Source of the DNA: an uncultured archaeon
Lineage (GTDB): Archaea; Thermoproteota; Nitrososphaeria; Nitrososphaerales; Gagatemarchaeaceae
Direction of reading: 5' to 3'
DNA length: 64,000 nt
Assembly (NCBI GenBank): GCA_963799775.1
Contig: CAWCYD010000003.1
Coordinates: forward strand, 736,001 to 800,000
Part shown: one piece after another, positions 43,587 through 52,758 of the stretch
Layout of the letters: the number at the start of each line of letters is the position of its first letter
Position numbering within the stretch: the stretch's first letter is position 1
Notes under the pieces: model-generated
Database searches by the model: none
What the model saw: the letters and a program-made list of their open reading frames with translations, nothing else
What the model was told of the DNA's origin: nothing
Translations under genes and position numbers: made by a program

Positions 43587-43719
43587 TGGCGGGCCCGGAG
43601 AGATTTGAACTCTCGATCTTCGGCTTCGGAGGCCGATGCCCTGATCCGTGCCAAGGGTGAGGTTCTCGGTGCCATGCTCATTTCCCCATCGCGGACGGCG
43701 GTGCCTAGGCTACGGGCCC
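43587..43719 (-). tRNA. tRNA-Arg(CCG) with ~54-nt D-loop insertion(s), CCA encoded
   Basis: GGGCCCG/CGGGCCC acceptor, GCCT/GGGC D-stem, TCGGC CT CCG AA GCCGA, GAGAG TTCAAAT CTCTC. Confidence 0.9.
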
Positions 43720-47576: not shown

Positions 47577-47672
47577 AGCCCGTTCGTCTAGTGGTCAAGG
47601 ATAGGGGCCTCTGGAAGCGCTCAACGCGTTTGGAGTTAGCCCTTGACCCAGGTTCGAATCCTGGACGGGCTA
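47577..47672 (+). tRNA. tRNA-Gln(CTG) with 23-nt intron at 37/38 (47615-47637)
   Basis: AGCCCGT/ACGGGCT acceptor (A1-U72), GGGGC CT CTG G|..|A GCCCT; BHB-like helix CTCT/GGAG. Confidence 0.93.
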
Positions 47673-47825
47673 CCTCCTCAATTCTAGCTCTATTTGCCCA
47701 GAATAGCCTGATACTGGATGTATCGCCATAACGGGTCTTATATCATAGGTATTTGCCGCGTCTGGACGGGCAAGCTGGCTAGGCGGCCTGGTTGGGCCAT
47801 AAGATGTCGCAAGCCCTCGAGAGTC

Positions 47826-49492: not shown

Positions 49493-49805
49493 CGACAGTT
49501 GGCCCTATTCGTTGGCAAGATGCGATATATACATGGGAGCGCCCGAGCCTCATGGCCTGACGATTCTTAAGATGGCAGGTTGGATTCGTACCTAATCGGG
49601 CGCGGACCCTTGACGTGCTATCATCAGCCTACCTACATTGTCCCCGCTCCGGGCAGGTTCGGGAATTGAAATGAAGTGACAACGGCGATTAGTAACCTTG
49701 TCAACAGACTGATCCCTTGGCGACAATGTCGCGAAAGCGTTGAAAAACAATGTGAGAGAGGACTCCTCCACTAAACAGATTAACGCTCGCTCTTACTGAC
49801 TGAAC

Positions 49806-49931
49806 ATGTTGTCCATGGAGCCCGATGCTGTTTGTTGCGTTCACGGAGTCTCTGTGGCTCAGTCTTGCGGGATTTGCGAGTTCATGGCCGGGCGCGACAG
49901 AGCTAAACCTACGACGACCGAAGCTGTCTAG
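49806..49931 (+). CDS. 41-aa putative zinc-binding microprotein
   Basis: MLSMEPDAVCCVHGVSVAQSCGICEFM.. (CxxH..CxxC). Confidence 0.4.
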   Translation: MLSMEPDAVCCVHGVSVAQSCGICEFMAGRDRAKPTTTEAV

Positions 49932-49964
49932 AGACCGGAAACAAAGATGTTCAGGCTGGTTATG

Positions 49965-50179
49965 GGCTCGGTCGTGTCCCCAGCTGGCCACAGGTATAGC
50001 GTAAACTTGGCCAAGCACGGGGGCCTTTGGAGCCCTTGACGTAGGTTCGAATCCTTGCCTGGAACCCGCCCGTCAGGCAGACTACCTTGCAGAACCCGCT
50101 CAAGGACGAAGACCTGGTGGCACCACAAGTATTGACCTGGGACAAATCGAACCAAGGGTCTCGAATCCTGGACGAGCTA
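49965..50179 (+). tRNA. tRNA-Gln(TTG)-like gene interrupted by multiple insertions (multi-intron gene or pseudogene)
   Basis: GGCTCGG TC GTGT..GCAC G GGGGC CT TTG GA GCCCT TGAC GTAGG TTCGAAT C..CTAC C..CGAGCT A. Confidence 0.65.
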
Positions 50180-50237
50180 CTCATCTCATCGATTCGAGAG
50201 CGCTCAAGGCCTAGCGAAAGTCTGAGCGCGAACGCCC

Positions 50238-50393
50238 TTACAGTTTCTTCCTTACCTTTTGGGCCCCCTTCTTGACGTCTCTTCCTGCGGTCTTGACCGC
50301 ATTCTCGGCCTTCTTCCCCGCCTTCTTTACATCATGCCCCGCGGCGTCGAGGTCACGTTTTGCAGCTGATTTCATTCCCTTCCTTGTAACCAT
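50238..50393 (-). CDS. 51-aa Lys/Ala-rich, LEA-like repeat protein
   Basis: AGHDVKKAGKK..AGRDVKKGAQK repeats; TATA-like CTTAAAG upstream. Confidence 0.6.
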   Translation of the reverse strand: MVTRKGMKSAAKRDLDAAGHDVKKAGKKAENAVKTAGRDVKKGAQKVRKKL

Positions 50394-50460
50394 GCGCATG
50401 TTGAGCCATTTCCAGTTACTTTAAGGTTTGAAAGAGGTGGATTCTCTCGGCGTCCACTCA

Positions 50461-51565
50461 TTACTGAGCGACCGGAGTCTGGATCATCCTCTGGAGCGCC
50501 TCCGCGAAGATCGGCGCGACCGGGACGATGTGCTTCGTTATCGGGTCACTTGTTCTTCACGGTGTCTGTCGTGACTATCCTTGACACCCCTGCCCGGGTG
50601 AGCCTCTCGAGGGTGGACATCGGCACCTTCTCTCCGGGCGCCTTGCGTTTGTGGTTTATCGCGTGAGTGCAGGCCAGGGTGATGTCGGTCGCCCCTTTTG
50701 TGGCGAGCCAGCTGGAGACCTTCGCGATTGTCGTGCCAGTCCCCACCATATCATCGAAGAGAATGAGCTGCCTCCCGCTCAGGTCTGGGACGGTCCTCCC
50801 CGATGCGAGCGTGACGGAGACGTCGTCTTTCTTCCTCACCTTGTCGAAGAGGATGACCTCATCGTCGGTCGTCTTGAAGAAACGCTCGACCGGCTCCGCT
50901 ACGGGCCTGTGCCCCTTGTCAGGGATGACGACGATAGGGTGCTCGATGCCGAGCTTCTCCTTGGCGTAGGTGGCCAGCGCGTTCGTCGCGGTCAGGTTGT
51001 ACACCTGGAGCTCTGACCCGTCGATGGCTACGTTCCCAATCTGCGTAGCACCGAAGTCGACGCGGCCCACGCTCCTCCAAAAGTGGACGTCTATGGTGAA
51101 GATTCGGTCGACCTTCATCGCCTTTATCGCCCGAAGGATCGCGCGGATGCTCAGAGCCTCTCCTTGGTGGAAGACCTTGTCTTGGCGGGCGTGGACGAGG
51201 TATGGTATCACGAGGTCGATGTAGCGGACGTTCTGCTGACGGAGCGCGTCTATCGTCAGAAGCATCTCGATGAAGTGATGGTTCTCCATCGGGACCGTCG
51301 TCTGCACGTAGATCACGTGAGACCCGGTCAGCTCGAGCTTCACCTTGTCGAGGGGCAGCCTGACGTAGACCTCGCTGTCTGCGAAGTCCTCGGCGTAGAC
51401 GTCAAGAGCTTCGTGAAGGCCTAATGCCCTTGCTATCCCCCGCGCGATCAGTCTGGAGTTCCCGGCCTTCCCTCCGAAAACGACGGTCCGGTCTGCGCCT
51501 GAGACGGAGGGAGCGTGAGCGGCGGGCATTTCCTGGTCTCCTAGACGGCCGAAAGCCATCGGCAT
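50461..51565 (-). CDS. prs: Ribose-phosphate pyrophosphokinase (C-terminal indel)
   Basis: F.DSEVYVR, PYLVHARQD, PDKG, FDDMVGTGTT, ACTHA. Confidence 0.9.
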
Positions 51566-51889: not shown

Positions 51890-52758
51890 TCACTTGGCGT
51901 TCTTGTGGGAGATCCCGAGGGCCTCCCAATAGGCCCCGGGCGTCCCGATGTCTATCCAAGACTCGTCGACCCTGAGTTCCACACCCATCACCTTCTTCCC
52001 GAGCTTAAGCAGCCTCGCGATCCCGTCCGTGAGCTGAAGCTCCCCACCGACGCCGGGACCGGCCTCCTGGATCGCGTCAAAGATGCTGTGCCTGAAGAGG
52101 TAGACCGGGGTGACCGCCAGGTTCGACTTTGGGGACGCGGGCTTCTCCACTATCTCGTCGATCGCGACGACGCCTTTGGAGACCCTCCCTGTGGCGACGC
52201 CGTATTTCCTCGGGTCGACCACCCTCCTCAAGGCCAAGGCGCTCTCCGCCCCGTTCTCGAACGCCGAGAGGAGGCGCCTTAGGTGCCCGTAGTTGACAGC
52301 GTAGACGTATGCGTCTCCTGCGTGGACCAGAAAGGGTCCTCGCCCGCGAAGACCCTCGCTTGGAGGACCGCGTGCCCGAACCCCAGGGGGACAGGTTGGT
52401 TCACCCACATGATGCTCGCCTGGTCCACTCGCCTATAGAACCTCTCGAGGGCGGAGGCTATCGCGGATGACGAGGCGGGAGAGGCTTCTCGGGCCGTGAG
52501 CCTCCTGAGGTAGTCCTCGTCAGGCGTGAAGTGGTCCTCGATGGCCCGCTTTCCCCGTCCAACGACGAAGAGGAACTCCCTTATCCCAAAGTCGAAGAGC
52601 TGCTCGAAGACGAGCTGGACCAGGGGCTTGATGCAAAGCTCCCCTCCTTCGCTGGCGAAGATCGGCAGCATCTCCTTGGGCTGGACCTTGGTGGCGGTGA
52701 GTAGTCTAGTGCCTAGCCCCGCGACAGGGATGACAGCCTTGATGTCCTTGGCTTTCAT
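51890..52758 (-). CDS. Sugar-phosphate nucleotidyltransferase (GalU-like), frameshifted
   Basis: PVAGLGTRLL..PKEMLP, Q..P.GFGHAV, VEKP, GELQLTDG, WIDIG. Confidence 0.9.

Follow-up and report, generated by a model that had tools for sequence, protein, structure and literature searches.

Does the interval 49965-50179 of the 64,000-nt window (the whole stretch of DNA that was analyzed) hold a living tRNA-Gln(UUG) gene, the interruptions of which are spliced out, or only the remains of such a gene? An earlier inspection of the letters (the sequence-only reading) had left both answers standing: either the tRNA is heavily spliced, or the locus is a pseudogene in which insertions pile up. Based on the comparisons described below, the locus is most likely a tRNA pseudogene or recombination scar in a soil Nitrososphaerota archaeon, and not a tRNA rescued by splicing. 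The preferred reading in its full form, to which a probability of roughly 0.8 is given, is that of a dead, mosaic tRNA-Gln(UUG) paralog, the 3' end of which would have been remodelled by recombination in an integration hot spot anchored at tRNA-Gln.

The pieces of the tRNA and the features related to them are given in Table 1. The anticodon arm GGGGC/CTTTGGA/GCCCT is intact at 50020-50036, with the anticodon UUG at 50027-50029, and the 5' strand and loop of the T arm (GTAGG TTCGAAT) are present at 50041-50052, as had been described. The TGCCTG/CAGGCA hairpin was likewise seen with all six pairs; deletion of 50054-50081 restores a GTAGG/CCTAC T-stem, and deletion of 50087-50172 yields a GGCTCGG/CCGAGCT acceptor followed by A73. 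The acceptor 3' strand CGAGCT and A73 (50173-50179) lie inside the type-a repeat. The ACAGGTA within insert 1 serves the inner contiguous unit as the 5' strand of its acceptor. When inserts 1 to 3 were all deleted in silico, ARAGORN returned a flawless 75-nt tRNA-Gln(UUG) cloverleaf. The D-loop deletion originally proposed was 23 nt in length; with it and the other two deletions ARAGORN found nothing at default settings and only a poor 72-nt fold at relaxed settings, and CCCC does stay behind in the D loop, as the sequence-only reading had itself pointed out.

Table 1. Parts of the interrupted tRNA-Gln(UUG) locus and related features of the window.
Feature	Position	Strand	Content or basis
Outer 5' piece	49965-49977	+	Acceptor 5' strand GGCTCGG, T8 C9, D-stem 5' strand GTGT; sequence and in-silico cloverleaf
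Insert 1, 27 nt	49978-50004	+	Holds second D-loop-like motif AGCTGGCCA and ACAGGTA
tRNA-Gln(UUG) body	50005-50053	+	D-loop 3' part, D-stem 3' strand, anticodon arm, variable loop, T-stem 5' strand, T loop
Insert 2, 28 nt, in T-stem 3' strand	50054-50081	+	Perfect 6-bp hairpin 50056-50061 / 50074-50079
CTACC	50082-50086	+	Remaining T-stem 3' strand and position 66; sequence and in-silico cloverleaf
Insert 3, 86 nt, at tRNA position 66/67	50087-50172	+	Left arm of the type-a repeat, with a degenerate second T arm, makes up its 3' part
Type-a repeat	50134-50180	+	Conserved arm and 3'-terminal core of tRNA-Gln(CUG); BLAST against own genome
Contiguous tRNA-like unit, overlapping other parts	49990-50064	+	Rfam RF00005 and model R2
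Degenerate type-b repeat, ending in tRNA-Gln 3' core	49575-49620	+	Aligns with nine type-b copies from this genome and two relatives
Intact tRNA-Gln(CUG), anchor of the hot spot	47577-47674	+	ARAGORN; canonical 23-nt intron 47615-47637

The region is derived from tRNA-Gln, beyond chance. A covariance model (R2) built from 14 tRNA-Gln genes of relatives scored 42.5 bits on 49990-50064 (E 5.6e-11), and at a permissive threshold RF00005 gave 27.3 bits on 49990-50063 (E 0.0022), just below its cut-off of 29. The body is 86-92% identical to the tRNA-Gln of relatives and 78% identical to the functional tRNA-Gln(UUG) of its own genome. No tRNA was called at the unmodified locus by ARAGORN at default settings or by Rfam at the gathering score, and the best spliced product reached 54 bits, versus 80 bits for the real spliced tRNA-Gln(CUG), with a sequence profile of the tRNA-Gln of the genus. 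Folding of the whole 236 nt revealed a stability that is not unusual (z 0.26). The G1.U72 pair, to which attention had been drawn, was found in the candidate, with A1-U72 in all 14 relatives. Archaeal promoters have a TATA-like box ~25-35 nt upstream. Judged by eye, an AT-rich box is found at most of 23 Rfam-supported tRNAs; the candidate has only an A-rich GGAAACAAAG, located ~20-30 nt upstream, which might still be a promoter.

Splice motifs (bulge-helix-bulge, BHB) were sought as a central helix of 4 bp flanked by an outer and an inner helix, the cuts lying in two bulges of 3 nt, and each junction was scored by its pairs in the central (maximum 4), outer and inner helix. As controls, the scan recovered the canonical intron of tRNA-Gln(CUG) (4/7/2) and the 17-nt D-arm intron of the intact tRNA-Gln(UUG) (4/1/2). 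Nine of the 18 intron-bearing tRNAs of the genome became intron-free ARAGORN tRNAs after one strict removal (one ambiguous); for the remaining nine one strict motif did not suffice. At the candidate, the three interruptions lack the splice-site structure needed by the archaeal splicing endonuclease. The strict scan of 49940-50200 gave 11 matches, none of them at the junctions needed for the cloverleaf. The T-stem insert has three equivalent cut positions (61/62, 62/63 and 63/64), which scored 1/0/1, 1/0/1 and 1/1/0, and the junction of the 86-nt insert scored 0/0/0; the 3' inserts, for which the sequence-only reading had noted poor BHB geometry, have one and none, respectively, of the four central pairs. 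The 23-nt D insert had been described as BHB-like. Its GGCC/GGCC helix exists, with TGGCCA occurring twice 23 nt apart (49985 and 50008), but in none of the seven equivalent 23-nt cuts did the 4-bp central helix occur together with both flanking helices. The 27-nt cut scored 3/2/0, the inner helix being absent.

A relaxed BHB-like motif was located at 50054|50169 (three of the four central pairs, two and two flanking pairs), which would link the first T arm to the second. It is present because two palindromic copies of the T-loop sequence can pair, and joining the RNA there leaves the mismatches G49.G65 and G7.A66. Since relaxed matches are frequent (106 in the 3' part alone), little weight is attached to it. 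The pieces were also considered as a split or permuted tRNA, and the strict scan of 49940-50200 showed no strict BHB or complementarity connecting them. Non-canonical tRNA introns are given in PMC4090602 at positions 3/4, 20/21, 22/23, 25/26, 29/30, 30/31, 45/46, 53/54, 56/57, 59/60 "etc."; positions 61-67 are absent from those given there. The sequence-only reading had called sites near 61-67 very unusual. The same source reports that Thaumarchaeota have broad-specificity (alpha-beta)2 endonucleases, which are tolerant of relaxed motifs.

The genome (G000) carries two intact tRNA-Gln genes. The tRNA-Gln(CUG) of the window scored 48.2 bits with Rfam and 69.5 bits with R2. An intact tRNA-Gln(TTG) gene elsewhere was one half of what the sequence-only reading had named as speaking against its candidate, and such a gene was found at G000:C3:216150-216240. 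It has A1-U72, an AT-rich box upstream and one 17-nt D-arm intron after position 10 with a proper BHB; the position of this intron is common to relatives (in L005, L009 and L020), and the left flank of the gene is syntenic with those of two genomes (G008 and G018). The cell has no need of the interrupted copy, since an intact tRNA-Gln(UUG) is encoded elsewhere. With this gene present and no BHB at any of the three junctions, the notion of a heavily spliced tRNA was not supported.

A further tRNA of the window, tRNA-Arg(CCG) at 43598-43653 on the minus strand (G000:C3:779587-779719), is recognized by Rfam only at model positions 8-63, and ARAGORN proposes a 59-nt insert in its D region. With C3:1121869 and C3:178752 as further cases, long introns of the D region are seen to be common in this genome.

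The surroundings of the candidate are not shared with other genomes. Metagenome contigs from two runs follow the window as far as 49620, where the type-b core ends, and run into unlike sequence from there. Six relatives of the genus with the prs-like gene have DNA in common with the window only from 50462-50495 rightwards. From the left divergence at 49620 and the right sharing from ~50465, a segment of ~845 bp containing the candidate and a 53-aa basic ORF is specific to this genome. Contigs of four DNA runs do not cover 49621-50587 and are silent on its presence and expression. Among the 40 relatives searched none carries the composite, matches being limited to the tRNA body or the type-a repeat. 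On these alignments the whole segment is evidently missing from the same place in close strains and relatives.

Several other features in and around this segment were inspected. The 53-aa ORF beside the candidate (50238-50399, minus strand) is lysine-rich. A 105-aa ORF (49701-50018, minus strand) was rejected as a gene, having no Pfam family and no match in 22 genomes of the genus. A weak match of the 5' piece in another genome (G019) proved to be unrelated sequence, and short direct repeats linking 49607-49634 to the candidate were at chance level by our own estimate. At 51890-52758 a PF00483 nucleotidyl-transferase signal is split over two overlapping ORFs of the minus strand (N-terminal part in 52279-52758, C-terminal part in 51890-52408), which points either to a frameshift in the gene or to an indel error of the assembly.

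Comparison with the own genome and with relatives shows that the last 47 nt, and with them the acceptor 3' strand, are part of a repeat family copied from the 3' end of tRNA-Gln(CUG) and bounding cassettes of accessory genes. The type-a repeat is 84% identical to G000:C2:207468-207521 and 83% to C2:198375-198421 (BLAST, the match extending over 50134-50194), and 86% identical to copies in two other genomes (G020 and G017). Its core differs by one base from the 3' end of tRNA-Gln(CUG), the sequence that is copied in the repeats. The type-b repeat recurs in L024, L025 and C2, and the types of copies are set apart by their conserved left arms. Within the window the cores lie on the same strand: the 3' end of tRNA-Gln(CUG) itself at 47661, the degenerate copy ending at 49620 and the repeat at 50168. 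The alternative of a pseudogene accumulating insertions gained support here, as the 86-nt insert ends in the tRNA-Gln(CUG) 3'-end repeat and the junction segment in which the locus falls is strain-specific.

An 8-bp inverted repeat, GCGCCCGA...TCGGGCGC (49538-49603), extends across the left arm of the degenerate type-b copy and is situated just upstream of the start of an ABC ATPase gene. It has a weak tRNA-like score on the minus strand (Gln model, 9.6 bits, E 0.16).

A larger set of copies was identified on another contig of the genome. At C2:195.4-210.0 kb seven copies of the tRNA-Gln(CUG) 3' end, each comprising the last 13-26 nt, are located 0.8-5 kb apart, all on one strand. The cassettes of this array (G000:C2:195400-210100, identical with L021:2400-17100, minus strand) encode PIN, TetR and SDR, MarR and Zn-ADH, HTH, an ABC ATPase and an Ig-like protein; neither an intact tRNA-Gln nor an integrase was found nearby. 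Cassettes totalling 10.6 kb (TetR, SDR, P-type ATPase, esterase) separate tRNA-Gln(CUG) from a type-a copy in G017. Next comes the same ABC operon that, in this window, stands immediately behind tRNA-Gln(CUG). The cargo between copies overall includes an ABC-2 transporter pair, PIN, MarR, TetR, SDR, Zn-ADH, a P-type ATPase and an esterase. Directly downstream of the tRNA-Gln(CUG) of G017 there is a 436-aa ORF (L022:2052-3359), for which no Pfam, PHROG or PDB match was obtained and which has paralogs, 23-28% identical, at five places in G000.

Based on the neighbouring ArgRS gene, the product of which is 64% identical to that of Ca. Gagatemarchaeum, related loci were collected, and a same-strand tRNA-Gln(CUG) was found at 42 of the 80. 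At least two same-strand copies of the last 14 nt of the tRNA are located downstream in eight of these 42 loci; L024 and G017 have an identical ORF and were counted as one source. Three to five copies of the tRNA 3' end occur on the same strand at L024:12452-18900, L025:12959-21900, L027, L041 and L062. The copies in L024 and L025, five in each, have a conserved left arm of ~50 nt and a partly conserved right arm (type b). The region downstream of ArgRS-tRNA-Gln(CUG) looks like a clade-wide, tRNA-anchored platform for cassettes, and the copies with their cassettes are the pattern that repeated site-specific integration at a tRNA 3' end would leave. Five PF00589 (integrase) matches are present in G000, none of them near either array and the nearest ~175 kb from the C2 array, and the array ORFs that were scanned showed no integrase domain. 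With no integrase near the arrays, the recombination mechanism is one that we infer.

The candidate itself bears signs of decay and patchwork. Parts of the tRNA are doubled, with two D-loop-like motifs and two T arms, the second of which is degenerate (50150-50171); this second arm and the contiguous unit had escaped the sequence-only reading. The contiguous unit has an acceptor of its own, ACAGGTA/TGCCTGG with six of seven pairs, in which the D insert contributes ACAGGTA and the 5' side of the hairpin TGCCTGG; there is one mismatch in the D stem of the unit, and the T stem is short by 2 nt. After CC, the 28-nt and 86-nt inserts share their first ~15 nt (shuffle p 0.0135). The candidate differs from all 14 relatives at position 1 (A to G) and position 4 (C to T). 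Two pairs are changed on both sides in a compensated manner across the inserts: 4:69 from C:G to T:A, at positions invariant in the 14 relatives, and 49:65 from C:G to G:C, with G49 and C65 both unlike all 14. These compensated pairs suggest that the outer pieces were formerly parts of a single functional, divergent gene. They would also fit present function; pure patchwork would rarely yield them.

The history that would account for these observations starts from a once-functional second, divergent tRNA-Gln(UUG) gene, possibly brought in by a mobile element. Its 3' end may have been struck by integrase-type recombination, and loss of most of the element would then have left an attR-like junction consisting of an element arm, the core and the 3' end of the gene itself. 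Two further small insertions or duplications would have entered the D loop and the T stem, after which a functional tRNA would presumably no longer be made from the locus. Simple integration in one step was discarded as a complete account, for it would put a copy of the core immediately behind CTACC, where none is present.

Three other explanations were weighed against that of the dead paralog. In a living multi-intron tRNA, the splicing endonuclease would remove the inserts, possibly through relaxed or sequentially formed motifs. The perfect cloverleaf after three deletions and the compensated pairs 4:69 and 49:65 are what this explanation would lead one to expect, and the genome is rich in intron-bearing tRNAs; both 3' inserts start alike, as do transposed introns in Thermoproteales (PMC4090602, citing Fujishima 2010), and the broad-specificity enzyme of Thaumarchaeota (PMC4090602) might cope with imperfect sites. 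It is nevertheless very unlikely, for the needed junctions have neither a BHB nor a usable relaxed motif, an intact, syntenic gene already supplies the isoacceptor, and the locus is kept neither in any of the 40 relatives nor at the site in close strains. The acceptor 3' strand belongs to a repeat family, G1.U72 departs from the A1-U72 of all 14 relatives, and insertion sites at 61-67 are absent from the positions given in PMC4090602. That the candidate is still a working tRNA-Gln(UUG) gene, the inserts of which (including those at 61-64 and 66/67) are removed with no recognizable BHB, is regarded as extremely improbable; if true, it would call for a splicing endonuclease of unprecedented specificity or for another route of RNA processing in soil Nitrososphaerota.

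If the mosaic were an artefact of the assembly, present in no cell, tRNA-Gln-derived repeats would have been collapsed or chimerised. The region is indeed full of short repeats common to other loci, the genome is a three-contig metagenome assembly of 81.67% completeness, at least one neighbouring gene looks split (the NTP_transferase mentioned above), and no independent contig of the four DNA runs crosses the segment; the common repeats are just 13-58 nt, however, and too short to mislead long reads, ordinary single-copy genes flank both sides, and analogous arrays occur in several independent assemblies, so that an artefact is considered very unlikely. It is also very improbable that the locus was never a gene and that att-site fragments (5', body and 3') from different tRNA-Gln copies came by chance to lie side by side, mimicking an interrupted cloverleaf. 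Such an origin would suit the two D-loop motifs, the two T arms, the overlapping contiguous unit with acceptor-like pairing and the position of the 3' strand inside a repeat, but the compensated pairs tie the outer pieces together and CTACC stands exactly where it is needed.

The preferred reading, that of a dead paralog at a hot spot, carries a warning for the annotation of intron-rich archaea: where inserts are freely deleted in silico, the cloverleaf that results counts as evidence for splicing only if every junction has a splice motif. It also marks the ArgRS-tRNA-Gln(CUG) locus as a probable recurrent landing site in this clade of soil Nitrososphaerota, where copies of the tRNA 3' end bound small cassettes, and the island thereby offers a concrete handle on gene exchange among these uncultured archaea.

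Multi-intron tRNA genes have been described in Crenarchaeota (Thermoproteales) and Thaumarchaeota (PMC4090602), and the candidate resembles them in having its body interrupted at several non-canonical places, in two inserts of similar sequence and in belonging to an intron-rich lineage with an (alpha-beta)2 endonuclease. In contrast to the candidate, with none at its three junctions, each of the real introns has a BHB or relaxed BHB, and the real cases are the only copy in the cell or are conserved, whereas the candidate is neither. With split and permuted archaeal tRNA genes (PMC3218864) it shares tRNA pieces parted by sequence that is not tRNA; in those genes, however, the pieces are transcribed separately and joined through a BHB of complementary leader and trailer, a motif that was not found here.

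The closest likeness is to the scars of att sites. In Thaumarchaeota 39 of 68 integrated elements lie in tRNA genes, with a median att length of 17 bp (PMC6563490), and the cores found here are similarly short (13-21 nt). Partial tRNAs, together with degenerate remnants, are dispersed through the tycheposon islands of Prochlorococcus (bioRxiv 10.1101/2020.12.28.424599). As in these systems, same-strand copies of the tRNA 3' end are located downstream of an intact tRNA, accessory cargo lies between the copies, its presence or absence varies between relatives, and degenerate remnants are scattered. The arrays described here differ in that no integrase was found in or beside them, in that many cassettes measure just 0.3-5 kb, and in that the scar is nearly a whole second tRNA of another isoacceptor and not a mere 3' fragment. 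As a tRNA pseudogene or att scar the locus itself is nothing out of the ordinary, and by analogy its surroundings look like the tRNA-anchored flexible islands of marine cyanobacteria and of other Thaumarchaeota.
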